Made by a program: the position numbers and the translations under genes. Shown piece after piece: positions 19,340 to 47,835 of a stretch of 64,000 nt of DNA. The notes under the pieces were generated by a model. That model made no database searches, was not told the DNA's origin, and saw only the letters and a list, made by a program, of their open reading frames with translations. How positions within the stretch are numbered: the first letter of the stretch is position 1; each line of letters opens with the position of its first letter. The stretch comes from Thermotogota bacterium ADurb.Bin062 (GTDB lineage: Bacteria > Thermotogota > Thermotogae > MWEM01): positions 4,277-68,276 of the forward strand of contig MWEM01000004.1 of assembly GCA_002071085.1 (NCBI GenBank), in the 5' to 3' direction.

Positions 19340-20365
19340 ATGGAAAGACTGAATAACCCCCACGATAGGTTTTTCAAAGAAGTGCTGGGGGATGTCGCAA
19401 ACACCCAAGCGTTCTTAGAGACCTATCTCCCCCCTGAAGTCTTACGAGCGATCGATGTGGGCACGATACAGGCGGAAAAGGACAGCTTCATAGAACAAGA
19501 CCTGAAGGAGTTCTACGCGGATTTATTGTTTCGGGCGAACATACGAAACCGAGAAGCCTACGTGTACATTCTACTGGAGCACAAGAGCTATAGCGACTAT
19601 AACGTAGGTGTACAGCTGCTCAGGTATATGTCTGCGATATGGGACAAAGAAATAAAGAAACAAAAGAACAGACGACTACCGCTGATCTTACCGATAGTGC
19701 TGTACCAAGGGAAAGAGAAGTGGGGAGTGTCCACGCAGTTTGCGGACAGGATCGAAGGGGTCGAAACGATGGAAGGGTCTTTGAAAAAAGCTATTCCCCA
19801 CTTTGAGTATTACCTATACGATTTTTCGTCAAATAGTGGAGAGGAGATCAAAGGGCCGGACGATCTACGCCTGTATCTGGAAACGATCAGGATGGCCTCG
19901 ATCAAAGACCCGGAAAAGTTCAATGAAGCGTACGTAAGAATCACCACCGTCTTCGTCACGCGGGAAGAAACGGAAACAAGTGAAAGGCTTTACGATACTT
20001 TTATTCACTATCTCTATTATTTGATCGCACGAGAGGATTTCTTGAGACTGGTACAACTGACGCGAACGGTATCGGTGGAAAGGAGTGAAAGGATGCAAAC
20101 GATAGCGGAATGGCTTAAGCAAGAAGGGATGGAAAAAGGACTTGAGGAAGGTATGTTAAGAGGACTCGAAAGAGGGATAGAAGTCGGACGCGAGCAACTT
20201 CTTTGGAAGCAGATCTCCAAAAAATTCCCACAAATCCCGCGGACATACTACGAAAAGCTGAAAACGCTTACAATAGACCAGCTTGACAACCTAGGCTTAG
20301 AGCTGATGGATATGCAAAATGTGGAAGAGCTGAAAAAGCATTTGCATGCGAAAGCCGGACTTTAG
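19340..20365 (+). CDS. Rpn/YhgA-family recombination-promoting nuclease (PD-(D/E)XK, transposase_31) with a DUF4351-like C-terminus
   Basis: The N-terminus MERLNNPHDRFFKEVLGDVANTQAFLETYLPPEVL matches the Rpn family start (HD..FK..F......FL...LP). Acidic/His core (DLLF...YILLEHKS). C-terminal helical EKGLEEGMLRGLERGIEVGRE repeats. Visibly more A-rich than neighbouring genes. Confidence 0.7.
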   Translation: MERLNNPHDRFFKEVLGDVANTQAFLETYLPPEVLRAIDVGTIQAEKDSFIEQDLKEFYADLLFRANIRNREAYVYILLEHKSYSDYNVGVQLLRYMSAIWDKEIKKQKNRRLPLILPIVLYQGKEKWGVSTQFADRIEGVETMEGSLKKAIPHFEYYLYDFSSNSGEEIKGPDDLRLYLETIRMASIKDPEKFNEAYVRITTVFVTREETETSERLYDTFIHYLYYLIAREDFLRLVQLTRTVSVERSERMQTIAEWLKQEGMEKGLEEGMLRGLERGIEVGREQLLWKQISKKFPQIPRTYYEKLKTLTIDQLDNLGLELMDMQNVEELKKHLHAKAGL

Positions 20366-20979
20366 TCTGGAATGTTTTGGAAGAAAAAACAGGGTCCGTG
20401 TGGAGAGCACGGAGGATTCTTTGCTGGGAACTCCACACTTTTGTGTGGCAAGGTTATAGATTTTTCTATGCTGGAAACAGCGAACTTCAGTGCGGTATGG
20501 GTTCATTGTTCTCTCCGTGCCCGCCGTGCAACCCCTTTTTTCAAGACCTGCCAACTTAAAAGTTGGCGTTTCCAGAAACCAAGCCGAACAGAAGTTCGGC
20601 CTTCCCAAAGTCCGCTCTCAGGAAAACAAAAAGACCTGCCGCGCAAACAGCTCGCTCCACGGTAAATCGGGGTTTCGGTTACCAAAATCAACACGTACCC
20701 TTCCAAGACCGTAGCGAAGAAACCTTGCAATTTCGATGCCAGATGAGATACAATATATACGGAGTCTTCCTCGGATACGCCGTTTTCTTTCGGGGCTCAA
20801 CCGGGGAAGGAGAACGAGCGGCCGCGGCTATCTCGTTTACGATACGAAGTGGCTTCGGTTGAAACGGGTATTCGGATTTTTGGTTTTCCTTTTCCGGTTT
20901 TAATCGTCGAGCGATTAAGACCGTCGAAAATCAGAAAACGTTTCTTTGTGAACAGCGGTTATGAGGGGGGATCATTCGG
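20366..20979. repeat. 614-bp non-coding region containing repeat modules and at least three hairpins
   Basis: CCACACTTTTGTGTGG (20440), GCCAACTTAAAAGTTGGC (20550-20567), GCCGAACAGAAGTTCGGC (20583-20600). The T-module copy CTCTCCGTGCCCGCCGTGCAACCCCTTTTTTCAAGAC (20500-20548) matches 35230-35278. No convincing ORF. Confidence 0.7.
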
Positions 20980-21849
20980 ATGGGTCATCTCGAGCGATTT
21001 ATCAGATGGATGACGATGCAGCGGTATTCGCCGCAAACGATCAAAGAGTACAAACGGGAGATCGAGCGTTTTTTTGCTTTTCTTCAGCGTGAAAACTTGC
21101 CTTATGACGCTTTGCAGATGCCGGATATAGAAGACTACCTTTTTTCTATCGAGGCTTCCGAAAGAACGCGTAATCGCGCTCTGTCCGCGGTAAAAGCCTT
21201 CTATCGATTTTTGGTGTCACGGGGAATCCTGGCAGTCGACCCCGCGAAATCGGTGAAATCGGTACGCGTCAAGCGGAAGAACCCGGTTTTTCTTTCCGAG
21301 GGTGAGTACCTCTCTTTGTTTCATCATTTGGATGGAGAGGGCGGTTTCCTTCCGGAACGCGATCGGGTGATGATCGCCCTTCTCCTCACAACCGGAATAC
21401 GGGTGTCGGAATTGGTGCGGATCGCGTTCAAAGACATCTCGACGGATCGCGCCGGCCGGATAACCCTCGAAGTCCTCAGAAAGGGCCAGGAGATGGATTT
21501 CATCTACTTGAACTCCCAAGTGACGGCACTTTTCTCAGCCTATCTAGAAAAGAGACGGGAAATCTCGGTGGACAGCGACAAGGTTTTCCTCTCTTATCGT
21601 TTGGGCCCCCTCGAACGCTCCGCCGTCTACCGGTTGGTGCGAAAATACTTGGAGCAATGCGGTATAGAGAAAAGCAAGAAAGGCCCCCATATCCTTCGCC
21701 ATACTTTCGCCACCGCCTTGATGAAAAAAGACGTTTCGCTGTTTAAGATCAAAGAGCTGATGAATCATAAAAATATCTCTACGACGGAGAAGTATTTGCA
21801 TATCGTCGAAGAAGACCTAAAAGACGTTGTCGAACAGATAAAACTCTGA
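20980..21849 (+). CDS. Tyrosine site-specific recombinase (XerC/XerD family)
   Basis: 289 aa. N-terminal SAM-like core-binding domain. Catalytic R (GIRVSELVRI), H-x-x-R (HILRHTFAT) and Y (TTEKYLHI). RBS GAGGGGGG. Confidence 0.8.
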   Translation: MGHLERFIRWMTMQRYSPQTIKEYKREIERFFAFLQRENLPYDALQMPDIEDYLFSIEASERTRNRALSAVKAFYRFLVSRGILAVDPAKSVKSVRVKRKNPVFLSEGEYLSLFHHLDGEGGFLPERDRVMIALLLTTGIRVSELVRIAFKDISTDRAGRITLEVLRKGQEMDFIYLNSQVTALFSAYLEKRREISVDSDKVFLSYRLGPLERSAVYRLVRKYLEQCGIEKSKKGPHILRHTFATALMKKDVSLFKIKELMNHKNISTTEKYLHIVEEDLKDVVEQIKL

Positions 21850-32106: not shown

Positions 32107-33126
<1,020 letters not shown>

Positions 33127-33142
33127 TCGTCGCAAAAACATC

Positions 33143-33168
33143 GGCACGCTTCGGCGTGCCTTTTTTTA
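33143..33168 (+). terminator. Intrinsic terminator/attenuator hairpin between gap and pgk
   Basis: GGCACGCTTCGGCGTGCC followed by TTTTTTT. Confidence 0.55.
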
Positions 33169-33179
33169 AGGAGGAGAGA

Positions 33180-35144
33180 ATGGAAGCATTGACGATACGA
33201 GATGTGGAACTCACCGGGAAAAACGTGTTGATGCGTGTGGATTTCAATGTTCCGCTCGATAAGAAAACGAACCAAGTAACGGATGACACACGGATACGAG
33301 CCGCGCTGCCGACCATACGTTACGCCCTTGAGAAAGGTGCCAGAGTGATACTGCTATCCCATCTCGGAAGACCAAAAGGCGGGCCAGATCCGAAGTACAG
33401 CCTTCTTCCGGTGGTTTCAGCGCTATCTGCGCTGTTGGAGAAACCGGTTCTATTTTCAAGCGTCTTCGTCGGAGAAGAATCCGAACAAAAAGTGAGGAAA
33501 CTTCAGAACGGAGAGGTCCTCTTGCTCGAAAATACCCGTTTCGATCCGAGAGAAGAAAAGAACGACAAAGGGCTATCCCGTGAGCTGGCTACCTATGGCG
33601 ATCTGCTCATCAACGACGCCTTCGGCACCGCCCACAGAGCGCACGCCTCTAACGTCGGGGTAGCCGATTATCTGCCCTCCTATAGTGGTTTCTTGATGGA
33701 AAAAGAACTCCGCTTCCTCGGTAAACTCGTGGAGAAGCCGGAGCACCCCTATGTGGCCGTTTTGGGAGGCGCGAAAGTGTCCGATAAAATCGGGGTCATC
33801 GAAAACCTTCTGACCAAAGCGGATAGGCTGTTGATCGGGGGGGCGATGATGTTTACCTTTTGGAAAGCCCTCGGCTTTGAAACGGGCAGCTCCTTGGTAG
33901 AAGAAGACAAGATACCCTTGGCGAAGGCGCTCCTCGAGAAATCGGGAGAACGATCCGTCGAAATTTTGTTACCGATAGACGTTGTCGTTTCCGAAAAGAT
34001 GGAAAGCGGTCAAATCAAGCGGACGGTCACCCGGGAAGCCGGGGTACCTCGCGGATGGATGGGATTGGATATCGGAGAACGAACGATCGCTTTGTTCAAA
34101 GAGGCGATGAAAGGCGCAAAAACGATCGTATGGAACGGACCTATGGGTGTCTTCGAACTCCCGGAATTCGAGGAAGGTACGCGAGCGATCGCTGTGGCGC
34201 TATCGGAGCGGAAGGACGCCACAACCGTCGTTGGAGGCGGAGACAGCGCAGCGGCGATCGCCAAATTCGGGCTGGAAGAAGAAGTGACCCACGTTTCTAC
34301 GGGCGGCGGAGCCTCGCTCGAGATGTTGGAAGGGAAAGAAATGCCCGGTGTGGCGAGCCTATGCGTTCGGAAGAGTCGGAAAATGGTCGTCGCAGGTAAT
34401 TGGAAAATGTACAAAACGCCTGATGAGGCGGGGGCGTTCGCCCGCCGTTTGCTTCAAGTGTTACCGAAGTCTTTCGAACCCGTCGAAGTGGTCTTGTGCC
34501 CTCCTTACGTAGACCTTCACGCGGTGCGCGATGTTCTCGTCGGAACACCGTTGGCCATAGGAGCTCAGAACGTCTACCCCGCCGAAGAAGGCGCCTTCAC
34601 CGGAGAGATATCCCCTCGGATGCTCGTCGCTTCCGGTGTCCGCTACGTCATCGTCGGTCATTCAGAGCGGCGAGCGATTTTCAAAGAAACCAACGATTTC
34701 ATCAACACGAAACTCAAAAGTCTTTTGGCTTCCGGCCTTAAGCCGATCTTCTGCGTAGGCGAAACCTTGAGCCAGCGTGAGAGCGGAGAGACTTTGTCGG
34801 TGTTGGATAACCAAGTGACGGAAGGGTTAAAGGGGCTTCCCGCCCCGGATGTGGAGAAGATCGCCATCGCTTACGAGCCGGTGTGGGCCATCGGCACGGG
34901 GAAAGTCGCGTTGCCTTGGCAAGCCCAGGAGGCGTGTTCGCGAATCAGAGAAAAGCTGAGCGACCTGTACGGCGCGGAGGTGGCCTCGAAGGTTTCGATC
35001 CTTTATGGAGGGAGTATCAAGCCTGAAAACTTCGCGAGCCTGATGGCGCGCCCGGACGTCGATGGCGGATTGGTCGGTGGCGCCAGTTTGCAGGAGTCCT
35101 TCGCCGATTTGGTCAAAACGGCGTTGACCTTTCGGCCTATTTAG
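33180..35144 (+). CDS. pgk/tpi: Bifunctional phosphoglycerate kinase / triosephosphate isomerase (in-frame fusion)
   Basis: ATG 33180 ([27 protein letters not shown]) with RBS AAGGAGGAG. PGK signatures (LSHLGRPKG). Continues without a stop into TIM ([11 protein letters not shown]...[12 protein letters not shown]). The ORF-track start at 33081 overlaps gap and is not supported. Confidence 0.9.
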
Positions 35145-35702: not shown

Positions 35703-35711
35703 GGTATAATG
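35703..35711 (+). promoter_or_regulatory. Putative extended -10 (TGGTATAAT) promoter for the oppA-like gene
   Basis: TTATGGTATAATG, 50 nt upstream of ATG 35760. Confidence 0.35.
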
Positions 35712-35759
35712 TTCTTAACAACGTCTTCTATACTCACCAAATCAAAGGAGGAAGGTTCA

Positions 35760-37265
35760 ATGAAGAAATCCCTTTTGTTTTTGCTTGTCTTAACGGTTTT
35801 TTTTAGTTTCTGTTTTGGCGCACGCGCGGGCGGGGATTTGAAGTTCGCAGTGCAGGTGGAACCGGCCGGATTCGATCCCAATTTGGCGACGGCGTTCGGC
35901 TCACACCGGTTACTTGAGCACGTTTACGAAGGGCTCTTGAGTTTTAACGAAAATATGGATATCGTGCCGGGATTGGCTGAGAGTTTTGAGGTCCCCGAAC
36001 CCACGAAGATCGTCTTCCACCTTCGAAAAAACGTCCTTTTCCATGACGGCACTCCGTTCACCGCGGAGGATGTGCTCTACACCTTTAAGAGGATACAGGA
36101 CCCGGCCTTCGCCTCTCCGGCCGCTTCCTACTACACGGAGGTCTCTTCTATCACGGCCCCGGACCCTTACACCGTGGTTTTCACACTTAAGGTGCCGATG
36201 GTCAACTCTCTGCTTCTAAATTTCGCCGGAGTAAACAGCGCGATCGTCTGTAAAAAGACCGTCGAATCCGGCGTCAATATGCAGCTCCAGACGAACGGTA
36301 CCGGCCCCTTCAAACTGAAAGAATACGCCGCAGGGAATTATATTGCGCTTCAAAAGAACGAGAGGTATTATGTCCCGGGACTCCCGTTACTCGATAGCCT
36401 GACCTTCGTGGTCATCCCGGAAGAGATCTCTCGTAGTTCCGCGTTGAGAAACGCGGACGTTCAGATGGCTCAGATTATGGAGCCGTTGAGCTTAAATACC
36501 TTCCCAGCGCAGCGCTTCGTGACCTACCGCGTCTCGACTTTGCCCTATCTCCTGTTAGGGATCAACAACGCTGCGAAACCCTTCGACAACGTTTTGGTTC
36601 GGAGAGCTTTGAGCTACGCGATCAACCGAGAAGAACTCGTGGAGATGGTGGCTTTCGGCGAAGGCACGGTTACCGGTCCGTTGAACCCGTCTCTGAAGAC
36701 ATGGGCGTTGTTGCCCGAAGCCTTTGACGAATACTCTTACAACCCCGAAAAGGCGAAAGCGTTGTTAAAAGAGGCCGGCTATCCGAACGGTTTCTCTTTC
36801 GAGGCCGTTACATACGCCCAATACAGTCTCGACAAAATCGGAGAGGCGATTCAGGCGCAGCTGGCCCTCGTGGGTATCCAGATGAAAGTCGACGTCGCGG
36901 AGTTCGGGATTTTCGTCAAGCGATGGCGCGAGATCGACTTCCAAACCTTCCTTTCTCTCAACGGCGGGTCCACGGAGCCCGATATCCAGTTCTATCGGAC
37001 CTTCAAATCCGATGGCGCGACCAACAAGTTCAATTTCAAGAACGCGAAAGTCGACGAACTTCTTGAGAAGGGGCGTCAGGCGCTGGACTTAGAAGAACGC
37101 GTCGAGATTTATCGCGCCCTTCAGAGGCTTCTGGTCGAAGAGAATCCGTTCCTCTTCCTTTACTCTCCAAACAACCTCTATGTGTCTTTACCGGAGGTTA
37201 AGGGCTTCGTGCCGATGAGCAACCAGAGCCTGATTATGCTCAAAAAAACGTGGTTGGATAAATAG
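35760..37265 (+). CDS. ABC transporter substrate-binding protein, family 5 (oligopeptide/dipeptide OppA/DppA-like)
   Basis: ATG 35760 after RBS AAAGGAGGAAGG. Signal peptide MKKSLLFLLVLTVFFSFCFGARAGG. SBP_bac_5 organisation. The ORF-track start 35709 is unlikely. Confidence 0.8.
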   Translation: MKKSLLFLLVLTVFFSFCFGARAGGDLKFAVQVEPAGFDPNLATAFGSHRLLEHVYEGLLSFNENMDIVPGLAESFEVPEPTKIVFHLRKNVLFHDGTPFTAEDVLYTFKRIQDPAFASPAASYYTEVSSITAPDPYTVVFTLKVPMVNSLLLNFAGVNSAIVCKKTVESGVNMQLQTNGTGPFKLKEYAAGNYIALQKNERYYVPGLPLLDSLTFVVIPEEISRSSALRNADVQMAQIMEPLSLNTFPAQRFVTYRVSTLPYLLLGINNAAKPFDNVLVRRALSYAINREELVEMVAFGEGTVTGPLNPSLKTWALLPEAFDEYSYNPEKAKALLKEAGYPNGFSFEAVTYAQYSLDKIGEAIQAQLALVGIQMKVDVAEFGIFVKRWREIDFQTFLSLNGGSTEPDIQFYRTFKSDGATNKFNFKNAKVDELLEKGRQALDLEERVEIYRALQRLLVEENPFLFLYSPNNLYVSLPEVKGFVPMSNQSLIMLKKTWLDK

Positions 37266-37274
37266 AATGGAAAC

Positions 37275-37305
37275 CCCCCGCTTCGGCGGGGGGTTCTAAT
37301 CTCAC
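37275..37305 (+). terminator. Intrinsic terminator/attenuator between the SBP gene and the permease genes
   Basis: AAACCCCCCGCTTCGGCGGGGGGTTCT: perfect 8-bp GC stem, tetraloop TTCG, then TTCT. Confidence 0.6.
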
Positions 37306-37306
37306 C

Positions 37307-38260
37307 GTGATCGCGACTTACATTTTCGGACGAGTTCTCTCCGCTGTCCCCACGATACTGATCTTGACCTTCATCGTGTTTCTCGCCATCCATCTCGTTC
37401 CAGGCGACTACATCGATATTATGCTCGGGACCCAAAACTACCTGACCGACGAGCAATTATCCGGACTGTATAAACAGTACGGCTTAGATAAACCTTTTGT
37501 CGTACAATACGGGATATGGTTGAAAAACCTAATCACCTTCAACTTCGGGACCTCTTTGCGAACGGGCCAGAAGGTTTCTGCGATGATACTTGAAAAGCTC
37601 CCGGTGACCTTTGAGCTCGCCTTCTTCGCTCTTTTCTTCAGTTTGGTCTTCGGGATTCCCCTAGGGATCACATCCGCGGTGAAACGCAACCGTTTCGGCG
37701 ACTACGTTGTGCGGGTTTTGGGATTGATCGGTCTTTCGGCGCCCACTTTTTGGATCGGCGCGATACTGATCGTCGCGGTTTCCGGCCTATTTCAGGACTA
37801 CACCCTGTTCGGGTTTGTCTCATTTCAAAAGGATATGGCCAAGAACCTGCAGATTCTCCTCATTCCCTCGTTGACGCTGGGGTTGATGTTAGCGGCCCAA
37901 ATTATGCGGATGGCGCGCAGTTCGATGTTGGACGTTCTGTCGCAAGAGTACGTGAAGGTGGCGAAAGCCAAAGGAGTATCGACCTGGAAGGTGATCTATC
38001 GACACGCCTTAAAAAACGCGATGATACCGGTGATCACCACCGCGGGCATACAGTTCGGATACTTGATGGGCGGGACGATTCTGATCGAGAATATGTTCGC
38101 GTTGCCCGGCTTGGGACGACTGTTGCTCCAATCGGTCAACCAACGCGACTACCCCGTGATCCAAGGCGTCGTGTTGTTCACCGGGGTTTTCATCGTACTG
38201 ATGAATATCCTCGTTGACATTCTGTATACGCTTATCGACCCACGCATCGATTTAAGGTAG
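37307..38260 (+). CDS. ABC transporter permease (OppB/DppB-like)
   Basis: 317 aa, 6 TM. BPD_transp_1 signature region (AKAKGVSTWKVIYRHALKNAMIPVIT). Confidence 0.85.
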   Translation: MIATYIFGRVLSAVPTILILTFIVFLAIHLVPGDYIDIMLGTQNYLTDEQLSGLYKQYGLDKPFVVQYGIWLKNLITFNFGTSLRTGQKVSAMILEKLPVTFELAFFALFFSLVFGIPLGITSAVKRNRFGDYVVRVLGLIGLSAPTFWIGAILIVAVSGLFQDYTLFGFVSFQKDMAKNLQILLIPSLTLGLMLAAQIMRMARSSMLDVLSQEYVKVAKAKGVSTWKVIYRHALKNAMIPVITTAGIQFGYLMGGTILIENMFALPGLGRLLLQSVNQRDYPVIQGVVLFTGVFIVLMNILVDILYTLIDPRIDLR

Positions 38261-38274
38261 CCTAAGGAGAAAAC

Positions 38275-39105
38275 ATGGAGTGGAAGAGATTGAGGAGGAA
38301 GTTCGCGAAGAATCCTCTGAACCTAATCAGTGTGGTGGTCTTCGCCCTGTTCTTAGCGATGGCCTTTTTTCCGCAAATCTTCACCCAGTTCGAACCCAAT
38401 CGGATGAACAGCGCCGTTCGGATGATCTCTCCCACGGCCTCACATATCTTCGGAACCGACCAATTCGGTCGAGATATCTATTCACGCGTCGTTCACGGGG
38501 TACGCGAGACACTCTCCATCGCCTTTCTATCAATCGTATTGGCTTGTGTTTTGGGAACGGCCTTAGGGGTTATTTCCGGTTTTTACGGTCGGTGGATAGA
38601 CCAAATCGTGATGCGGTTAATGGACGCGATGTTCGCCTTTCCCACCATAATCTTGGCGCTATTCATCATTGCGCTGTACGGAGCCAGCCAAAAGAACCTG
38701 ATCATCGCCTTGGGTATCGTCTATACCCCGATCTTCACCCGAACCGTTCGAGGTTCTACGATTTCGATCAAACAATTTTTATACATCAAAGCTGCGAAAG
38801 CTTTGGGGAAACGCGATTTGAGCATTATGTTGAAAGACGTGCTTCCGAACCTCACCTCGGTGCTGATTGTCAGCTTCACCACGAACTTTTCGACCGCGGT
38901 CTTGTCGGAAGCTTCGCTGAGCTTCTTAGGCCTGGGCGTACCACCGCCGACGCCGACCCTAGGAGGGATGGTCGGACAGGGGAGCAACTTTCTGTTGTCG
39001 GCCCCGTGGATCGCGCTATTCCCGGGGTTGTTTATCGCGCTGATCGTACTGAGCATAAACATCATCGGAGATGGTCTGAGGGATGTCCTCGACCCGCGGT
39101 ATTAA
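38275..39105 (+). CDS. ABC transporter permease (OppC/DppC-like)
   Basis: 276 aa, N-terminal OppC_N-like segment, then permease core. Confidence 0.85.
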   Translation: MEWKRLRRKFAKNPLNLISVVVFALFLAMAFFPQIFTQFEPNRMNSAVRMISPTASHIFGTDQFGRDIYSRVVHGVRETLSIAFLSIVLACVLGTALGVISGFYGRWIDQIVMRLMDAMFAFPTIILALFIIALYGASQKNLIIALGIVYTPIFTRTVRGSTISIKQFLYIKAAKALGKRDLSIMLKDVLPNLTSVLIVSFTTNFSTAVLSEASLSFLGLGVPPPTPTLGGMVGQGSNFLLSAPWIALFPGLFIALIVLSINIIGDGLRDVLDPRY

Positions 39106-39165
39106 GGCGGGCTCTTTGTGATACAATAGGGCGAATAAATCGGAAAGAAAGGGAGGAAAAAACCA

Positions 39166-39576
39166 TTGGAAATCTCGATCGATAGGCTGTTGAACATACT
39201 CGTCTCCCAAGTCGAGTCCCTCTCGGCCGCAGTAGAGGATTTACGATTGAAACAAAACGTCGTCGGCACCGTTTTGATGGACGCCGGACTGGTCAATGAG
39301 GAAAAGATAAAGAACGCGGTGAAAAAACAGTTCCACGTGATGAAAAGCCTTAACGCTGAAGAAAACTACACCGAAGAAGAGATTTCGCTTTTCACGAAAG
39401 AAATCGTCAAATGGTTTCAGTGCGATATTTTATCGATAAGACAAGACTTGGAACGCATCCAGCATATGTTGAAACAAATGGCAAAGGACGCCCCGAAACA
39501 GGAAAAAGGACGTATCCAGATCGCGACGCCCGGACTGTTGAACGATTTGGACCGGTTGAAAAAAACGAAAATGTGA
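39166..39576 (+). CDS. Hypothetical soluble protein (136 aa), coupled to the downstream ABC ATPase
   Basis: TTG start after AGGGAGG. Its stop overlaps the ATPase ATG (ATGA). Confidence 0.5.
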   Translation: MEISIDRLLNILVSQVESLSAAVEDLRLKQNVVGTVLMDAGLVNEEKIKNAVKKQFHVMKSLNAEENYTEEEISLFTKEIVKWFQCDILSIRQDLERIQHMLKQMAKDAPKQEKGRIQIATPGLLNDLDRLKKTKM

Positions 39577-40559
39577 TGGATGACGCGATCGGCAAGGCCT
39601 TCGTCGAAATCAACGGTTTGACGAAGGAATTCGGTGAGGTCAAGGCGCTACGCGAGGTATCCTTATCTATCCGTGAGAACGAGCTGGTTGGTCTATTGGG
39701 CCCCAACGGGGCCGGTAAGTCCACTCTCTCCAAGATTCTTGTAACGCTTCTAAAACCGACCTTTGGAGAGGTCCGCATCGCTGGGTATCGACTAAGCGAG
39801 CACCCGCAGAAGATACGGGAGATTATGGGCTACGTGCCCGCCCAACCCACTTTGTACCCGCACCTGACGGCTTGGGAGAACCTCATTTTGTTCGCTGATT
39901 TTTACGGAATCAAAGAACGAACGGCTCGCGCCGCGATAGAAGAGCTACTCGAGGCCTTCGACCTATGGGATTTCCGGCACAAGACGCTACGGAAGTTCTC
40001 TACGGGTATGATTCAAAAAGTGAATATCTGCCGCGGTCTCATTCACGACCCGAAGTTTCTGGTTCTCGATGAACCATTCAACGGACTTGACCCCGTTTCA
40101 CGCTCGGTAGTCAAAGCCTATTTGACTCGTATGATCCAAAAAGGGAAAACGATCTTGCTCACCACACATTTTTTGGATTCTGTGGATGACTTTATCAATA
40201 ATGTGATCATCCTCAATCACGGGAAAGTCTTTTCGCAAGCAGAAACCCAGACCTTGAAAGAAGACTTTCTCCGGAAACAGAAGACGCTGCGCATAGAGGT
40301 CAAGGGGACCTTGATTGCGGACTCGCTTAGGGAAGGCGAGCCCATCGGCGGGCTCTCGGAACCGATCCGCCTCAAGGAAATCAAAGGAGAAGATTTTTTC
40401 GTCTTTGAAATAGAATCCTTTGATCGTCTAGAAGAAAAGCTCCGTATCATCCAATCTCTCTTTTCAAGGGTCTCGTATTTCCGTATGAAAGACCCCACGT
40501 TGGAAGAGATATTCATTTCGCTGACAAAAAAAACCAAACCTTCGGAGGTGCAAGTATGA
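39576..40559 (+). CDS. ABC transporter ATP-binding protein (ABC-2 type)
   Basis: ATG 39576 (MDDAIGKAFVEINGL...). Walker A GPNGAGKST, signature FSTGMIQKV, Walker B LVLDEP. The ORF-track upstream extension from 39411 overlaps the preceding gene. Confidence 0.85.
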   Translation: MDDAIGKAFVEINGLTKEFGEVKALREVSLSIRENELVGLLGPNGAGKSTLSKILVTLLKPTFGEVRIAGYRLSEHPQKIREIMGYVPAQPTLYPHLTAWENLILFADFYGIKERTARAAIEELLEAFDLWDFRHKTLRKFSTGMIQKVNICRGLIHDPKFLVLDEPFNGLDPVSRSVVKAYLTRMIQKGKTILLTTHFLDSVDDFINNVIILNHGKVFSQAETQTLKEDFLRKQKTLRIEVKGTLIADSLREGEPIGGLSEPIRLKEIKGEDFFVFEIESFDRLEEKLRIIQSLFSRVSYFRMKDPTLEEIFISLTKKTKPSEVQV

Positions 40560-42076
40560 AAAAAGTGTTAGTGTCGGTCCTATTGGTTGTTTTACTGTGC
40601 GTTAGCGCGTTTTCCGCAATCGTGGATTACGTGCCCGCTGACGCGTCTTTCGCGCTGGTGATGCGGAACAATGCCTCGCAATACGAACAACTCAAGAAAG
40701 TCGGAATTTTCGGGTTTCTACTCAGAGATATGGGATTGGAAAGTATGATCGCGCAACAATTCGAAAGTATGAAGTATACGGACCCGAGTTTTAAACCCGA
40801 GAACTTTTGGGGGTTGTTGGGGGGCGACATCGCCGCGTTTAGTCAAGGGGAATTCGATTTTTCTGTCTTCGGTGACCTGTTTGGATTCGCTTCGGACCCG
40901 GACGATCTCCTTCCGGAGATGATGGACCGGCTTCAAGACTTGTCTATGGTTTTCATCGTAAAACCTACCGCCGACCCCGATCTCGTGATCAAGACTTGGA
41001 ACAAGGCGCTGGGAATGGAGATGGCCTGGGGCGTGGACCCGTATTCGGGAATGATGCTAGAAAAATCGGACGGATACATATTGTTTGGAACGAACGCGCA
41101 AGCCATCGCTGCCGCCAAAGCGGCCAAAACTAACAATATCCTGAACAATCCCCACTTCCGAAAAGAGTATGACGCGGGCCATTGGATGGTTCTGTATTCC
41201 AAGAGCCAAATGGAGACCGAAAGCGTTTCCGACCTACTGGAGTCCAATTTAGGCCTCAAGATACCCACGGACATCCTCGAAGGCGTGGAAACCGACTATT
41301 CCATAGCGACGTTGCGCGTGGGAGAGGCGCTAGAGTTACGCCAGGTCACTTACTTCATCTATTCCAGCGACAGCTTGAAGCGGTTTGTGATCGATGCGAA
41401 CGCGGACCTCGCGGACCTGTACAAAAAAACCTCGATTCCGGGAACTATCCAAGGCTTGATGGCCGTGAACAAGATAGAGGAAGTCTGGAAAAACGTAGAA
41501 CCCGTATTCAACGACATCATCAATCAGCTGATCGAAAAAGGCGAAATGGACGAAACCGACAAGTCCACTGCGGAAAAGGTGTTCGGTTTCATCAAGGGCT
41601 TCAAAGGGTTAATGAAGTTCGGAATGGATATTACCCTAGACGAAAGCCTGAACCCGTTGGTCGACTTGTTCCTCAAGATCGATATGGACAAGATGGCCGA
41701 CCTGCAAGATTGGGCGCGCAAACAATCGGAAACCGCCTTCGTGGCAAAGGACGGTTATTTGGAAAGCGTGATTATGGCGAAAAACAAAGGCGATGACTTC
41801 GATTTCAATCTATACCTTGGCCAAGACGAAATCATCCTCTCCACGCTAAAAGCCAAACAGTTGAAGTCTGTCGACAGTCTGCCTGTTTTGGCAAAGAACC
41901 TGATGTTCGCGGAGCTTTCCAATCGTTACTCGTTCAAGAAGGGCAACGCGATGGTCTTTGCCGATATCGGTTCGATTTTGACGAAAATACTAGGGGTCGC
42001 CTATCCCTCCGGCCTATTCCTCGAATTCGGCGCCGATGAAAACGCTAACGTTCGAATGATCGCGGTCATTAAATAA
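40556..42076 (+). CDS. Secreted hypothetical protein (506 aa)
   Basis: ATG overlaps the ATPase stop (ATGA). Signal peptide MKKVLVSVLLVVLLCVSAFSA. No TM helices afterwards, so it is not the expected ABC-2 permease. Confidence 0.6.
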   Translation: MKKVLVSVLLVVLLCVSAFSAIVDYVPADASFALVMRNNASQYEQLKKVGIFGFLLRDMGLESMIAQQFESMKYTDPSFKPENFWGLLGGDIAAFSQGEFDFSVFGDLFGFASDPDDLLPEMMDRLQDLSMVFIVKPTADPDLVIKTWNKALGMEMAWGVDPYSGMMLEKSDGYILFGTNAQAIAAAKAAKTNNILNNPHFRKEYDAGHWMVLYSKSQMETESVSDLLESNLGLKIPTDILEGVETDYSIATLRVGEALELRQVTYFIYSSDSLKRFVIDANADLADLYKKTSIPGTIQGLMAVNKIEEVWKNVEPVFNDIINQLIEKGEMDETDKSTAEKVFGFIKGFKGLMKFGMDITLDESLNPLVDLFLKIDMDKMADLQDWARKQSETAFVAKDGYLESVIMAKNKGDDFDFNLYLGQDEIILSTLKAKQLKSVDSLPVLAKNLMFAELSNRYSFKKGNAMVFADIGSILTKILGVAYPSGLFLEFGADENANVRMIAVIK

Positions 42077-42106
42077 GCATAATTCGTCATACATCAAATT
42101 TGAATT

Positions 42107-42150
42107 GACCCGGGTGGAGGCAACCGCGCGTTGCTTCTCCCGGGTTTTTT
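42107..42150 (+). terminator. Hairpin plus T-run, candidate intrinsic terminator/attenuator
   Basis: CCCGGG-TGGAGGCAACCGCGCGTTGCTTCT-CCCGGG-TTTTTT, with an inner GCAAC-CGCGC-GTTGC hairpin. Confidence 0.4.
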
Positions 42151-42164
42151 GCGAGGAGGTTCGC

Positions 42165-44006
42165 TTGAAGGGTCGATTATTTCTGTGCTTTCTCGCGCTG
42201 TCCGCGCTCTGTTTCGCCGTCCGCCCTCTCTCTATAGAAGAGGCGCGCGCTCTGGTCCCGCAGATCGAGGTCGACACCTTTTCGATCACGTGCTACGGAA
42301 CCCGGTACGCCGTCGAAAAAGAATGGCAAGGGGCCCCTCGGATTCATTTCCTTTGGGATTCACAGACAGGGTACGAAAACCTCGTTGAACACGTTTTTGA
42401 AGAGGCGGGCTACCTGAAGACACCTGCCGGAGAGACGTTTCGCGGTAAGATCCTATCAATAGGGGAAGACTTCATCTACTGGGAATTCTCTTTCCGGGGG
42501 AAATTGGTTACCAACAGAGACGCGGTCGTTCGTAAAGACGAGAGACTTCCGGATTCCATTTGGCGTTTCTGCGCCCTTCACTATGGATTGTCGAAACCGG
42601 ATGAGACCGGCGAAAACAAGTCATTCTCTTATCTCGTCCTCCTGAAGAATCGGCAGCCTTACGAACCGGCGGATCCCCAGGCAAACCAGACAAGCGTCTT
42701 GCTTCTAGAAGGCCAAGGGTTCTCTATATGGAAGTTTTCCGATACGCACGTCCGATTGAAAACCCTATCGACTCAGAAAGCGAGCGAGCGGCCTGTGTGG
42801 CAGTTCGCGATTGCGCCCGTGCCCGTGCAAGCGATCGATCTCGAAGACGCCTTCTTTCCCTTCACGCTGGAAACCCGTCCGCCCGGTCTTTTGGCCCGTC
42901 TGGACGGCGTAGAGTATGAAACCCCGTTCTCCGCGCAACTACCGCAGGGTGTGCATCGCTTGGAGATCGCCGGTGAGGAACGCTTTTTCTACCTATCTGA
43001 ACCGACCACGCAGTTTCTGGAAATCGAGCAGCCTCAGGGCACGTTGTCTATCGAACTCTCGTTAACCGCAAGAATCGCGCTCTACCGCGATCGGGAGACT
43101 GTCTTTATTACTCAAAGCGCGACGCGTGTCACCCAAACCTTGCCCTTCGGTTTCTACACGCTGAAGGTACAACGAGAAGCCTACGAGCCGATCGAAGAAA
43201 CCGTGGAAGTCCTGCCTGGGAAGCGTGTGACTAAATCTTATTCGCTGACCCCGATTCCGGGCGCCGTATTCCTGAAGCGATCGCTGGATCAACCCTGCGA
43301 ACGAATCTTCGTCAACGAGAGGTGGGCCATTCTCGCGGACTCCACACGCTCGGTGTTTATGCCACTGCCAACGAACGACGCCACTGCTTTTTATTTGGAA
43401 GAGCGAGTCGCCGGCGCAGAGGGGCCGTTTTCCTTTTCGCTCCGGACCGTTTATTTGGGCGAGGCGCCCATTTTTCTAAACCCTTTTCCTATCGTCACCG
43501 TCGTGCCCTTCGACAAGGAGCTTTGGATCTTCGACGCCTCGGGAACGCTGACCGTGGTGAACACACGGAATAACAAGACCCTGTGGCAACGGGCAGTCGG
43601 TTACATCCCCCATTGGACATACCGCTACGATCGGTGGTTGGCCCTCTTGGATATATACGGAAACTTCATCCTACTCGAGCCCCAACGGGGATACCACGAG
43701 GTTTTTCGTTATCGCTTCGGCGCCTTGAAGACGCTCGACCACGTGGTCGTTACTCCAAGCGCGCTTCTGCTCTACTTTTCGCCCGATGCGCTATTAACCT
43801 ATTCTTTCAACACGCGGGCGTATCATTACGAAGAAGGGGTATCCTACGAACCCGAGCGAATCCTTCTCTCTACCAACGGTTTTCAAAAAGGTCGAGATCT
43901 GTTCTATCGGTTCGAAGAGCCCCTACGGGCCTACGACATCTCCGACGGGCACATCGCCGTCCTGTACGATCGATATTACGCCGTCCTTTTCGCGCCGGGG
44001 GAATAG
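42165..44006 (+). CDS. Secreted protein with PEGA-like beta-sandwich repeats and a probable beta-propeller-like C-terminal region
   Basis: TTG 42165 after GCGAGGAGGT. Signal peptide LKGRLFLCFLALSALCFA. PEGA-like segments (RPPGLLARLDGVEYETPFSAQLPQGVHRLEI; YTLKVQREAYEPIEETVEVLPGKRVTKSYSL). Confidence 0.45.
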   Translation: MKGRLFLCFLALSALCFAVRPLSIEEARALVPQIEVDTFSITCYGTRYAVEKEWQGAPRIHFLWDSQTGYENLVEHVFEEAGYLKTPAGETFRGKILSIGEDFIYWEFSFRGKLVTNRDAVVRKDERLPDSIWRFCALHYGLSKPDETGENKSFSYLVLLKNRQPYEPADPQANQTSVLLLEGQGFSIWKFSDTHVRLKTLSTQKASERPVWQFAIAPVPVQAIDLEDAFFPFTLETRPPGLLARLDGVEYETPFSAQLPQGVHRLEIAGEERFFYLSEPTTQFLEIEQPQGTLSIELSLTARIALYRDRETVFITQSATRVTQTLPFGFYTLKVQREAYEPIEETVEVLPGKRVTKSYSLTPIPGAVFLKRSLDQPCERIFVNERWAILADSTRSVFMPLPTNDATAFYLEERVAGAEGPFSFSLRTVYLGEAPIFLNPFPIVTVVPFDKELWIFDASGTLTVVNTRNNKTLWQRAVGYIPHWTYRYDRWLALLDIYGNFILLEPQRGYHEVFRYRFGALKTLDHVVVTPSALLLYFSPDALLTYSFNTRAYHYEEGVSYEPERILLSTNGFQKGRDLFYRFEEPLRAYDISDGHIAVLYDRYYAVLFAPGE

Positions 44007-44008
44007 GG

Positions 44009-44575
44009 GTGCCGGGGTATCGAACGCACAGCCTTTCGGCCTTCTTGACCTTTCCCCTCGTTACGCTCCTCTACAAATGTTTGGCGCCGTTGACGAAGGG
44101 TACGCCCCTGTCGTGGGATCAGATTTCGACGGGGTTCGTCTTGTACCTGCTCTCTTCGCAGGCACCGGACATCGATCATAAACAAGCCTACTCGAACCGC
44201 CTGTTCTTTTTCTTCTTATGGATGGTATTGACGCTGGCAGTTTTCCGCGCCCTGTTTACGCACGGGTATTACCTCCTACCCCCGGTCTTCGATCCAGTGA
44301 TCGAAGAAGCGCTGTTCGTTCTATCGCTGGCGGGGGGAGGGCTCGTTTCTTTCGTGTGCTTCAAATTGCTTCCGGTTCACAGAGGGCCGATCCACACCTT
44401 CTTGTTCGGTTTGGTTTACGCCTTGGCCCTCGGGGCCTTATACTGGTATTTGTTTGAAAACCTATCGACGGAGAAAGCGGCGTTGTCGCGGTTGTTTTTC
44501 ATCTTTATGTGCGCCCTGCTCGGGTTTTTAAACCATTTGCTCTTGGATAGCCTTTCCGGCAGGCTGAAAAGGTAG
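44009..44575 (+). CDS. Membrane-bound metal-dependent hydrolase (YdjM/DUF457-like)
   Basis: GTG 44009 directly after the upstream stop. 4-5 TM segments. Conserved His/Asp positions (QAPDIDHKQ...HRGPIHT...NHLLLDS). The ORF-track N-terminal extension from 43583 overlaps the PEGA gene in another frame. Confidence 0.45.
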   Translation: MPGYRTHSLSAFLTFPLVTLLYKCLAPLTKGTPLSWDQISTGFVLYLLSSQAPDIDHKQAYSNRLFFFFLWMVLTLAVFRALFTHGYYLLPPVFDPVIEEALFVLSLAGGGLVSFVCFKLLPVHRGPIHTFLFGLVYALALGALYWYLFENLSTEKAALSRLFFIFMCALLGFLNHLLLDSLSGRLKR

Positions 44576-44580
44576 GACCC

Positions 44581-47500
44581 TTAAGAGAACAGGTAAGTTA
44601 ACTCCTCTTTTCCGAAAGACCCGCCATCGCGTTCACTACCGCTCAAGACCCCGTCAGCCACACTCTGCTTGCGTTTCTGTAGCTCCAGCACCTTTTCTTC
44701 GATCGAGTCTTTCGCGATCAGTCGATAGACGAACACCGGTTTGTTCTGTCCGATTCGATGGGTGCGATCGATGGCTTGAGCCTCCGAGGCCGGATTCCAC
44801 CACGGGTCAAAGATGATGACGTAGTCCGCTTCCGTGAGGTTGAGGCCGACACCGCCGACCTTCAAAGTCATCAAGAATATCCGAGTTTCGGGGTTTTCTT
44901 TGAAAGCGTCGATGATCTCTTGGCGGTTTTGCGTTTTCCCGGTCATCGTCAGGATTTGATCTTTGTAGTCGGAGAGGTCCTCCTGAATGATCTCCAGCAT
45001 CTTCGAAAATTGTGAAAAAACTAAAACTTTGTGATTTTCGGCGCAAATACTGTCGACCAACTCCCTTAAAGCTTCCAACTTACCGGACAGCCCTTTGCCA
45101 GACAATTCCTCTTTCGTCAAGCGGGGATGGCAACAGATCTGACGCAAGCGCAGTAAAAGGGTCAATATTAGAAAGCGGCTTCGCTGAAAACCGGCTTCGT
45201 CGCGCATTATCGAAAGCGCCTCGGACTGTGCCGCTTTGAAGTAGGTATCGTAAATATCGGATTGAGATTTCGTCATGTCGACATACAGGTTTTCAATGGT
45301 TTTTTCAGGCAGTTCGGCTAAAACGTCTTCTTTCTTTCTCCTGAGGATCAAAGGGGCGATCTTCTTTCCTAGCTCTTCGAAGTTCTCGTTGTAGGTGGAA
45401 AAAAAGAGTTTGTCAGCACCAAGAAATCCGGGCATTAAAAAGTCGAAAATGGACTTCACGTCTGACAACCCATTTTCTATCGGCGTGCCGGAAAGGGCGA
45501 GCCGGTTCTCCGCTTGCACTTTCGTCAATTCTTTGAAAGTCCGCGTGTTTTTATTCTTTATATTTTGAGCCTCGTCGAGGATGACGTAATTGAAGGTTTT
45601 GGGGGTAAATAGGCGGATGTCGTTGCGCAACGTGGCGTAGGTCGTCAAGATCAAATCAGAAGTGCTCTTCGAGATATCTTGGTTTTGCCGACCGTACCCA
45701 TGATAGATCAGGGTCGTGAGATCCGGCGAGAAACGGTTGGTCTCGGCCTCCCAGTTTCTCAGCAACGACTTCGGCGCGACGACGAGCGCGGATAGCCGTC
45801 CGTATCGACGTTTAAAATCGTGTAGCATCGCGAGCGCCTGAACGGTTTTACCCAACCCCATATCATCGGCCAGTATTCCCGAAAGACCGTATTCCTCCAA
45901 AAACCTCAGCCAGTTGTACCCCGCAATTTGATACGGGCGTAGTGACGCGCCGAAATCCGATGGGACCGGATACTCCTGTATTTGAGTGAACTTATCGATC
46001 GCCGAAAGAAACCGTTCGGTTCTCTCGTCGAAAGAGGGTGTCGTCACCTCCCTAAGTGTTTGTAAGGTCTCGAAGTCTGCCTTCGGGATACGCAACCCGT
46101 CTTTCAGCTGGCTTAACCGTGATCTCAGTGTTTCGAGTTTCCCCGCCTCGTGAGGATCTACGGAGAAGTATTCCCCGTTGATCTGAAGATATTGAGAGGG
46201 GTTGGCCAAAAGACGATCCAGATCCTCAGCGGCGATGGGTTCGCCGTTCAGTTCCCCGCTTAACGCCAGATCAAACCAGTCGGTACCATATGAGAAAAAC
46301 GTTTTGACGATCGGCTTGACCCGCCCGCGAGAAAAGAGCCGAGTGTCGCACTCCAACACCACTTCTTTTTCGTACTTTGGGAACTCCTCGTTGACTAGGC
46401 GCAAAACGCTCTCCAAGTGTAAGTCGTAAAGTAGGCTCTCTGCGTCTAGACAGGTCTCGTGGCTGAGCATATTCCGAATAGTTTGAATGTGTTGAGCCTC
46501 GAACTCCAAATCTCTCTTAAAGATTTGGCCGGTGGTTTCGGAAATAATGATACTTTCGGGTTGTTCGGCCGACAAACGGCGATCTCCGTACTTGAAGAAC
46601 AGCTGAAATCGATAGTTCCAATGATAACTTTGGATCTGCCATAGAGCCTTCGGCTTTTCGCTGGTATAGGCCATTCCATTTCCGAACAGCTGGGGCGCGA
46701 CGTTGACCTGCAAAGAGAGTAGGGGCAAGAACAGTAGTCGCTGCAGAGATCCCTTATTTTCTTCTTTCTCTGCTCCCCAATCGTAGTCTTTCAGCAGTTC
46801 CTGGAGACGAAAAGTCGTTTCTGCGTCCAATGAGGTGACGACCGGAAAAATCTTGTTGGTGATGATCGCCAATTTCAAACCCAGCTTTCCATAATAAGCG
46901 AAAGCGGGCAAAAAATAGTCTTTTGTTTTCGTAGCTTTCAATGGATACTCGATCCTGTTTTCTTCGTTGATCAACCGGAATTCCAACAGTTGCTGATCCG
47001 GCGCTTTGATCCCCGAGCGTTTCGGCTTCAGATGAAGCGTAAGCGTGGGACCGAAAACAGCCGGTTCATTCAGATAGTTAATGTAAACGCAATCATCATC
47101 CCGAAAAGCCTCTACGAACCTTTGAAAATCTGTGATTTCTAAAGAAAATTCATTATGATAGGAATCAGTCGAGGGAGGAACATAACTCATACAGGACAAA
47201 ACGCGCGCAAAGAACGGATCGTCCCTCTTGTACAACCGTTGATAACTCACGAGTTTTTGACCGGTAGCGAGGTATTTCCCTTTTGCGTTTCTTTTCCGCC
47301 GGGCGACTCTAGCAAGCAGCTCCCTGTTACACGGGTTCAGGAGCACGACAAATTTCTCCTCTTCGGACTTTGCTCCCTTTTCGCTGGAATTCCGTTGTTC
47401 CGTATGAAAGAAAGAGAGGAGATGAGTGAGTTGCTCTTTGTTTCCCAGGTATTTACGATAACCGGATTCGAACATTTGAATCCTCTTATGCTCCTCATAG

Positions 47501-47835
47501 AGCTGTTCGACTTTGCTCGATTGTCTCCCAGCCTCCTCCAAGAGGAAAAGGAGATGAGGGCAGAGCCTTTCTATCCGCGTGTCGTACCCGCAGCTACAAT
47601 GCAAACTTATGGCGCGGTCTTTGAACGAGACGATCGCGATCACGTATATTTCTCGTTCCGCAAAACCGCCCGTGATGACCACTGCGTCCTTTTCAGTGGC
47701 GAATTCGAAATCCAACACTTTCCAGAGAGATTTTGGCACTTTTCTTGTTAAATGGTTCTTTTCTCGTATTTCCTTCAAAATAACGGAATACTCTTCAGAA
47801 AATCGGATCATAGTGAGTTCAACGGGTAAAATCAT
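44581..47835 (-). CDS. SNF2-family helicase with N-terminal SWIM zinc finger (paralog of 15687-19157)
   Basis: SWIM HCSCGYDTRIERLCPHLLFLL. SNF2_N LRPYQIAGYNWLRFLEEYGLSGILADDMGLGKTVQ, DEAQNIKN. Helicase_C GGVGLNLTEADYVIIFDPWWNPASEAQAIDRTHRIGQ. Confidence 0.85.
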   Translation of the reverse strand: MILPVELTMIRFSEEYSVILKEIREKNHLTRKVPKSLWKVLDFEFATEKDAVVITGGFAEREIYVIAIVSFKDRAISLHCSCGYDTRIERLCPHLLFLLEEAGRQSSKVEQLYEEHKRIQMFESGYRKYLGNKEQLTHLLSFFHTEQRNSSEKGAKSEEEKFVVLLNPCNRELLARVARRKRNAKGKYLATGQKLVSYQRLYKRDDPFFARVLSCMSYVPPSTDSYHNEFSLEITDFQRFVEAFRDDDCVYINYLNEPAVFGPTLTLHLKPKRSGIKAPDQQLLEFRLINEENRIEYPLKATKTKDYFLPAFAYYGKLGLKLAIITNKIFPVVTSLDAETTFRLQELLKDYDWGAEKEENKGSLQRLLFLPLLSLQVNVAPQLFGNGMAYTSEKPKALWQIQSYHWNYRFQLFFKYGDRRLSAEQPESIIISETTGQIFKRDLEFEAQHIQTIRNMLSHETCLDAESLLYDLHLESVLRLVNEEFPKYEKEVVLECDTRLFSRGRVKPIVKTFFSYGTDWFDLALSGELNGEPIAAEDLDRLLANPSQYLQINGEYFSVDPHEAGKLETLRSRLSQLKDGLRIPKADFETLQTLREVTTPSFDERTERFLSAIDKFTQIQEYPVPSDFGASLRPYQIAGYNWLRFLEEYGLSGILADDMGLGKTVQALAMLHDFKRRYGRLSALVVAPKSLLRNWEAETNRFSPDLTTLIYHGYGRQNQDISKSTSDLILTTYATLRNDIRLFTPKTFNYVILDEAQNIKNKNTRTFKELTKVQAENRLALSGTPIENGLSDVKSIFDFLMPGFLGADKLFFSTYNENFEELGKKIAPLILRRKKEDVLAELPEKTIENLYVDMTKSQSDIYDTYFKAAQSEALSIMRDEAGFQRSRFLILTLLLRLRQICCHPRLTKEELSGKGLSGKLEALRELVDSICAENHKVLVFSQFSKMLEIIQEDLSDYKDQILTMTGKTQNRQEIIDAFKENPETRIFLMTLKVGGVGLNLTEADYVIIFDPWWNPASEAQAIDRTHRIGQNKPVFVYRLIAKDSIEEKVLELQKRKQSVADGVLSGSERDGGSFGKEELTYLFS

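Follow-up and report, generated by a model that had tools for sequence, protein, structure and literature searches.

The described systems closest to the locus reported here are the type V, or ABC-2, ATP-binding cassette (ABC) exporters GldAFG, NosDFY, DrrAB and ABCA; the operons of NosDFY and GldAFG encode, near the ATPase, exported accessory proteins as well. Here we examine a string of five genes in a 64-kb stretch of DNA from Thermotogota bacterium ADurb.Bin062 (GenBank assembly GCA_002071085.1, contig MWEM01000004.1, positions 4,277 to 68,276), referred to below as the window, in which an ATPase of this same class is likewise encoded beside large signal-peptide proteins. Unlike the systems of GldF, NosY and DrrB, however, it comes with no six-transmembrane (TM) ABC-2 permease. 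As an earlier note on this DNA had claimed for the cluster, none was found there, nor in the 37 window open reading frames (ORFs) scanned with Pfam (most, not all, of those of at least 150 residues) or in ~30 related loci, where no ABC-type permease was met within the cluster and no candidate permease in the inspected flanks; the stretches inspected were the 64-kb window and, for each relative, ~20 kb of surrounding DNA. The two exported proteins of the string, p506 and p613, match no accessory family in Pfam (GldG/ABC_transp_aux or NosD), in contrast to GldAFG and NosDFY. Several of the parts are already known, namely the ABC-2 nucleotide-binding domain (NBD), the PEGA domain, YdjM and, in relatives, MnhB. 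In the libraries and literature that we searched, we found no description of the combination of genes, of the families of p136 and p506, or of an ABC permease so consistently missing.

The five ORFs, read from an ORF listing and directly from the sequence, all lie on the plus strand at the positions that the earlier note had given (Table 1), and their order proved to be part of a larger pattern. A scan of 185,579 species genomes returned 14 loci, all from metagenome-assembled genomes (MAGs) labelled Thermotogota, Thermotogae or Thermotogaceae; once ORFs had been called in the fetched loci and their proteins clustered by BLAST, the cluster was recognized in ~30 loci, so far only from uncultured Thermotogota. 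Across these the order F2-F1-F0-(F4-F5)-F3 recurs, neighboring genes either overlapping or lying a few nucleotides apart, and the flanks are of at least five different kinds (Dpp genes; ribosomal-protein, FtsW, DUF5685 and DnaJ genes; proteases; others). That the cluster is a real conserved unit is well supported, since the same order and tight packing in ~30 loci of different uncultured Thermotogota rule out a chance arrangement.

Specifically, two layouts can be distinguished. In the lineage of the window (the window itself and loci L001/L012, L011 and L003/L004/L028/L029, with p506 52-71% identical to that of the window) the succession is Dpp genes, p136, ATPase, p506, p613, YdjM and SNF2. 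In the other lineages, where p506 identity is 29-37% and GC content 34-54%, it is p136, ATPase, p506, F4, F5 and a p613 homologue, the F4 and F5 genes sitting between p506 and p613 in at least 25 related loci. F4 (~232 aa) joins a three-TM MbhD domain to an SBP_bac_3-like domain, and F5 (~239 aa, ~6 TM) carries MbhE and MnhB domains. Their Pfam scores in relatives (51-54 bits for MbhD in F4, 68-70 bits for MbhE and MnhB in F5) lie above the Pfam cut-offs, which all matches pass except MbhE and SBP_bac_3 in L018. F4 is furthermore exclusive to the cluster, with 18 of 18 true matches in a metagenome-wide scan falling inside it. The pair matches the MbhD, MbhE and MnhB/MrpB proteins of Mrp/Mbh systems. 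Unlike Mrp/Mbh modules, it stands isolated, without the other subunits, and its F4 is fused to the SBP_bac_3-like domain; to our knowledge, MbhD/MnhB-type genes beside an ABC ATPase are a combination not found in any described system. Read from its sequence, F4 (L013 11546-12250 and homologues) has the positively charged residues RKTGK after the third TM helix, so that, by the positive-inside rule, the SBP_bac_3-like domain may face the cytoplasm; there it could offer the ATPase or p136 a place to dock.

Neither F4 nor F5 was found in the window, in its four closest species or in close loci, where tblastn gave nothing better than E=0.45, and we accordingly rejected their relocation within this DNA. 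A neighbor-joining tree of p506, which carries no bootstrap support, nests the window lineage among lineages that bear F4 and F5, with L047 outside; on this basis their absence is tentatively read as a secondary deletion. The window carries, with good support, a reduced and derived form of the six-gene cluster, and the spacer with the hairpin terminator occupies the place of the apparently deleted genes, a position that holds F4 and F5 in at least 12 other species. Where the earlier note had taken the five genes as one module, the comparison resolves them into a conserved core of p136, ATPase and p506, with p613 belonging to the wider cluster and YdjM specific to the window lineage. Its suggestion that a permease had been replaced by secreted partners does not generalize either, as most relatives have polytopic MbhD/MnhB-type proteins in the cluster. 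Across the window lineage the ATPase remains 54-77% and p136 78-90% identical, conservation which indicates that the trio is still under selection without F4 and F5.

The junctions within the string are tight. Translation of p136 starts at TTG 39166 behind a GGGAGG ribosome-binding site, a TTG or GTG start being kept in four species. The ATPase starts at ATG 39576, which overlaps the p136 stop by a single nucleotide (TGATG); an alternative in-frame GTG at 39573 would make a GTGA overlap. Of the two ATGA overlaps proposed earlier, then, only that between ATPase and p506 is a true one (40556-40559, with GGAGGT upstream), and it bears out the proposed translational coupling of the ATPase to the exported proteins. 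In one related lineage (L006 466-966, also L007 and L050), a HEARO RNA (Rfam RF02033, 127.6 bits) and a 77-aa RRXRR-domain ORF lie between the p136 and ATPase genes; this insertion is an IscB/OMEGA-type mobile element, which adds ~1.6 kb to the junction and is followed by an ATPase ORF with a 28-aa N-terminal extension.

Beyond p506, the 88-nt spacer to p613 folds at -33.4 kcal/mol (z = -2.9 relative to shuffles) and contains the terminator-like hairpin that had been reported there (42107-42146, with a 17-bp stem followed by U6), which a simple terminator scan missed because of an internal mismatch in the stem. The most likely start of p613 is TTG 42165, after GAGGAGG, in agreement with the 613-aa gene calls in relatives; a 633-aa ORF from 42105 is the mechanical maximum for this gene. 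The YdjM gene begins, as previously stated, 2 nt past the p613 stop, at GTG 44009, and downstream of it lies a convergent SNF2 helicase gene (44581-47835).

The ATPase itself is readily classified. It matches PF00005 at E=2.8e-32, and its best NCBIfam model is TIGR01188 drrA (256.4 bits, below the curated cut-off of 312.45), followed by GldA (185 bits, below its cut-off of 402.6), a PQQ-linked ABC protein, RbbA and NodI; it scores under every curated NCBIfam cut-off, and no Dpp/Opp ATPase model occurs within its best 25 NCBIfam matches. Among solved structures it comes closest to the NBDs of ABCA3, ABCA4 and ABCA1, which are lipid transporters, and next to Thermotoga maritima 4yer, NosF and Rv1218c. 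The ABC-2 type named in the earlier note stands, the ATPase being ABC-2/DrrA/ABCA-like; a Kyte-Doolittle scan shows no hydrophobic segment in it. When 20 family members are aligned, four motifs prove invariant, namely Walker A, Walker B (including the catalytic Glu), D-loop and H-loop (GPNGAGK[ST]TL, L[VI]LDEP, GLDP and TTH). The ABC signature reads FS[TS]GM, and the C-terminal domain, of a kind typical for ABC-2 ATPases, closes with EPTLE[DE][IV]F[IV]; judged by these motifs, the ATPase appears to be competent for catalysis. At the canonical Q-loop position all 20 members have A, S or T in place of Gln ('cpQhd' of ABCA3 aligns to 'vpAqp'), and the ATPases of the window lineage have a Gln one residue past this position. 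We rejected the missing Gln as a sign of a non-transport or non-canonical role, since this Gln is likewise missing from TarH and Wzt, both of them genuine type V transporters (PMC11971408).

The neighboring p506 had been described as exported and not a permease, and indeed its sole hydrophobic segment (Kyte-Doolittle, 19-residue window) is signal-like and spans residues 1-29, which rules out a hidden multi-pass permease. Neither p506 nor 10 distant relatives match a Pfam or NCBIfam family, PADLOC returned no match for p506, and PDB sequence profiles gave only sub-threshold ones. The family is small: a word-indexed search found 8 relatives, and an exhaustive profile search of 1.84 billion protein representatives found 33 at E<=1e-3. 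In a medium-confidence structural model the exported p506 is a probable alpha/beta protein, weakly reminiscent of the alpha/beta/alpha fold of TP0453 (PDB 3k8g). This lipoprotein, associated with the outer membrane of Treponema pallidum, has been proposed to carry lipid or glycolipid; p506 is 8% identical to it at twice the length. Unlike TP0453, the p506 family has no conserved lipobox Cys, Cys15 being found only in the window protein and F, V or M in its relatives. More distant members of the family (L031 1765-5767; L032; L026, L027 and L030), at 17-23% identity, have no linked ATPase; in one lineage the gene stops 1 nt before secA and in another it precedes rpmE, placements that suggest, for the family at large, a housekeeping function in the envelope or in secretion.

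As for p613, its previous description as a secreted protein with a PEGA domain is supported by a single N-terminal hydrophobic segment (Kyte-Doolittle) and by a match to PF08308 at E=4.8e-7 and 30 bits, above the gathering cut-off of 20.8. PEGA, a domain that in Pfam's description occurs chiefly in proteins of the surface and envelope, is present in 11 of 16 members of the p613 family. The C-terminal region appears propeller-like, with matches that include the periplasmic BamB and YncE, in a poor model built on four sequences; PDB sequence profiles gave sub-threshold matches only, and a profile search yielded no further usable homologues. The last protein of the string scores 33.8 bits against PF04307 (cut-off 29) and has ~4-5 hydrophobic segments. 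The label 'YdjM-like membrane hydrolase' therefore keeps its family and its polytopic membrane nature, while 'hydrolase' is a database description only. In all four window-lineage species the YdjM gene starts 1-2 nt after the p613 stop; it is absent from loci with F4 and F5 and present solely in the lineage that lost them.

We tentatively propose that the locus is an ATP-driven module for envelope (toga) assembly or lipid handling, working with a non-ABC membrane partner and with p136 as a cytoplasmic adaptor, a reading that we regard as possible while stopping short of calling it probable. Four features together suggest the envelope role: the NBD is ABCA-like, one exported protein is TP0453-like, the other is of the PEGA/propeller kind, and the cluster has membrane proteins of its own. 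Under this proposal the trio would be transcribed from its own promoter, and a dimer of the ATPase, with p136 as cytoplasmic adaptor or regulator, would dock on a non-ABC polytopic partner. In most species this partner would be the Mrp-type pair F4/F5, and in the window lineage either YdjM or a product encoded elsewhere. ATP hydrolysis would then drive a periplasmic-side process performed by p506 and p613, most likely one that extracts a lipid, or another hydrophobic constituent of the envelope, and passes it on toward the toga, or else one that assembles a toga-associated layer. The more particular claim about architecture is that an ABC-2-class NBD powers a machine whose membrane part is non-ABC (the Mrp/Mbh pair in relatives; YdjM or nothing dedicated here) and which includes p136 and periplasmic TP0453-like and PEGA/propeller proteins; this we consider doubtful.

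In favor of the envelope module speak the tight and recurrent gene order, the exclusivity of F4, the invariant ATPase motifs with ABCA NBDs as nearest solved relatives, the lack of an ABC permease at any locus, and a conserved promoter-like motif that sets the trio apart from the Dpp genes; so do the PEGA domain and propeller-like C-terminus of p613, the position of the window lineage among F4/F5 bearers in the p506 tree, and the coupling of YdjM to p613 only where F4 and F5 were lost. Several points weigh on the other side. Every relative is an uncultured MAG. ATPase, p136, p506 and p613 are still 54-90% identical across the window lineage after the loss of F4/F5, and this conservation of the trio and p613 speaks against F4/F5 as an indispensable membrane partner and favors one encoded elsewhere. 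That Mrp-type proteins were replaced by the unrelated YdjM is speculative, and we know of no precedent for an MnhB- or YdjM-type protein coupling to an ABC NBD. The likeness to TP0453 comes from a model of medium confidence and was not reproduced by a Foldseek search of p506 against the PDB, which gave no match; finally, the more distant p506-like proteins P0013, P0014, P0016 and P0020 lie beside rpmE, secA or an aminotransferase gene with no linked ATPase.

The main rival is a canonical ABC-2 exporter in which the gene for the permease lies in another part of the genome, so that the ATPase acts in trans and p136, p506, p613 and the membrane proteins are accessory, substrates or merely co-regulated. 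The ATPase is indeed an ordinary ABC-2/DrrA-class NBD with the typical C-terminal domain, and its retention after the loss of F4/F5 is what would be expected of a partner outside the cluster; our inspection covered just the flanks of each relative and the 64 kb here. A possible partner exists as well: a fused LptF/G-LptA-LptD-like 'pABC permease', located in the toga, occurs phylum-wide in Thermotogae (PMC10160955). With such an Lpt-like permease, however, one would have to accept an ATPase that scores far under the cut-off of the LptB equivalog TIGR04406 (144.5 versus 240 bits). More generally, prokaryotic ABC-2 systems nearly always have their NBD gene next to the one for the transmembrane domain, while here the NBD is locked to non-ABC genes in ~30 loci and several contexts, and no candidate permease appears in any inspected flank. 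Weighing these, we hold an exporter acting in trans to be somewhat unlikely, though a serious contender.

A third reading starts from p136. This protein precedes the ATPase in every complete locus and is the best conserved of the set (90/88/78% identity within the window lineage, versus 77/75/54% for the ATPase); as stated earlier it is soluble, with no hydrophobic segment by Kyte-Doolittle, and nothing in Pfam, NCBIfam or PDB profiles exceeded threshold, nor did PADLOC give a match. Its residues 32-55 (window 39259-39330), VVGTVLMDAGLVNEEKIKNAVKKQ, resemble the 24-residue MshEN/T2SSE_N-type motif, RLGxxLLxxGLIxxxxLxxALxxQ in MshEN. With 14.5 bits against the MshEN-like NF053729 (cut-off 38), the key first Arg missing and the second Gly not conserved in relatives, this c-di-GMP/MshEN-like motif is a weak lead only. 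Perhaps the ATPase is a soluble, non-transport ABC protein of a regulatory or chaperone-like kind that works with p136 in the cytoplasm, one that controls, for instance, the production or export of p506 and p613 and has no dedicated membrane partner. The constant translational coupling of the cytoplasmic p136 to the ATPase, the missing ABC permease, the distant p506 relatives adjoining secA and the survival of the trio without F4/F5 would all suit such a role. Known soluble ABC proteins (ABC-F, ABCE, SufC, UvrA, SMC/Rad50) belong to other classes, however, and the ATPase is, unlike them, a single-NBD protein of the ABC-2 type; p136, for its part, has no recognizable DNA-binding, RNA-binding or chaperone domain, only sub-threshold matches. 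We therefore think this reading improbable.

Directly upstream of the trio lie genes that invite yet another explanation. An SBP_bac_5 protein (E=1.6e-82) is followed by two BPD_transp_1 permeases of the DppB/DppC type (E=6e-46 and 2e-27, plus OppC_N), which end 60 nt before p136, an arrangement typical of Dpp/Opp (PepT-family) importers except that the two DppD/F ATPases are missing and the neighboring ATPase is of another ABC class and part of another conserved gene unit. The earlier statement that no permease is adjacent thus holds for the ABC-2 class but overlooked this orphan pair; a missed neighboring permease, which the same note had said would undo its proposal, was in that sense partly found, albeit in another ABC class. 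Could the ATPase energize these permeases as part of one importer operon? It is the sole ABC ATPase in the 64 kb (tblastn with the ATPase found no second one), it sits 470 nt downstream of the SBP-DppB-DppC genes, and the adjacency is kept in four species (L001, L004, L011 and L028). The lineage concerned is, moreover, the same one that lost F4/F5 and whose ATPase has the Gln just past the Q-loop position. Against this stand four observations that argue against a functional link and leave such an importer very improbable: the ATPase is of the ABC-2/DrrA and not of the DppD/OppD class; it is translationally coupled to p136 and p506 and not to the permeases; the trio occurs without Dpp genes upstream in most, distant, lineages; and a promoter-like block separates dppC from p136. 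This block, TTT[G/A]TGATACAATAGG, does not change between four species, although their proteins share only 52-78% identity and the remainder of the spacer is variable. Read from its letters, it resembles an extended -10 promoter; a simple promoter scan did not flag its TGaTACAAT element. Either the orphan Dpp operon is powered by ATPases with genes in another place, or this system is unusual. A GC-rich and very strong hairpin at 37271-37296 (11 pairs, of which 8 are G-C), situated between dppB and the gene for the binding protein, gave a sub-threshold match to RsmY in Rfam and looks like the intra-operon stem-loops common after binding-protein genes.

That there is no functional unit at all, and that the gene order is synteny inherited among related genomes, is extremely unlikely: all loci do come from one phylum, a HEARO/IscB element interrupts p136 and the ATPase in one lineage and the hairpin divides the window string in two, but order and overlapping stop and start codons are kept while flanks change at least five times and identity falls to 20-40%, and F4 is found nowhere outside the cluster. 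A defense system was ruled out as well, PADLOC giving only generic P-loop/ABC matches to the ATPase and none for its partners, and an Rfam scan of 35-45 kb returned nothing above threshold.

Beyond the cluster, the window has further features. It encodes two large SNF2-family helicases, one of 1156 aa (15687-19157, plus strand) and one of 1084 aa (44581-47835, minus strand); Pfam finds a SWIM zinc finger in the former, and the latter has a similar N-terminal Cys/His pattern, with no such match listed at E<=0.001. A YhgA-like transposase (PF04754 and DUF4351) beside a tyrosine recombinase/integrase (19340-21849) may be the remnant of a mobile element. After the GAPDH gene lies a PGK-TIM fusion gene (33081-35144); such fusions are known from Thermotoga, and its presence fits the Thermotogota assignment of the related MAGs. 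A 914-aa protein (3352-6096) has an N-terminal MEDS sensory domain (E=6e-21), its remaining ~740 residues carrying no annotation.

Table 1. Features of the five-gene string and of its upstream context, in window coordinates
Feature	Position	Strand	Remarks
p136, small soluble cytoplasmic protein	39166-39576	+	First gene of the conserved trio
ABC ATPase, ABC-2/DrrA/ABCA (type V) class	39576-40559	+	PF00005, TIGR01188; C-terminal DrrA_C/DUF4162-like domain
p506, exported protein of a rare family without Pfam model	40556-42076	+	
Terminator-like hairpin, 17-bp stem and U6	42107-42150	+	Spacer where relatives hold two membrane-protein genes
p613, exported protein with PEGA domain and probable C-terminal beta-propeller-like region	42165-44006	+	
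YdjM-family (PF04307) polytopic membrane protein	44009-44575	+	Translationally coupled to p613
Promoter-like extended -10 element, TGaTACAAT	39119-39127	+	Between dppC and p136
Dpp/Opp-type binding protein; two permeases	35709-37265; 37307-38260, 38275-39105	+	Context only; no DppD/F ATPases

For the building and supply of the toga, the unusual outer envelope of the Thermotogota, few biogenesis factors have been proposed besides BamA and one fused Lpt-like permease (PMC10160955); the cluster offers a concrete, testable candidate for such a factor. If an NBD does work here with non-ABC subunits, this would be an undescribed architecture of ABC-driven toga biogenesis in a deep-branching diderm without LPS, and a coupling of the ATPase to Mrp-type or YdjM-type proteins would enlarge the set of ABC architectures. 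If the ATPase instead serves a distant permease in trans, the ABC-2 class would have in it a rare example of an unlinked NBD. Under either reading, p136, p506 and p613 would gain their first functional context.

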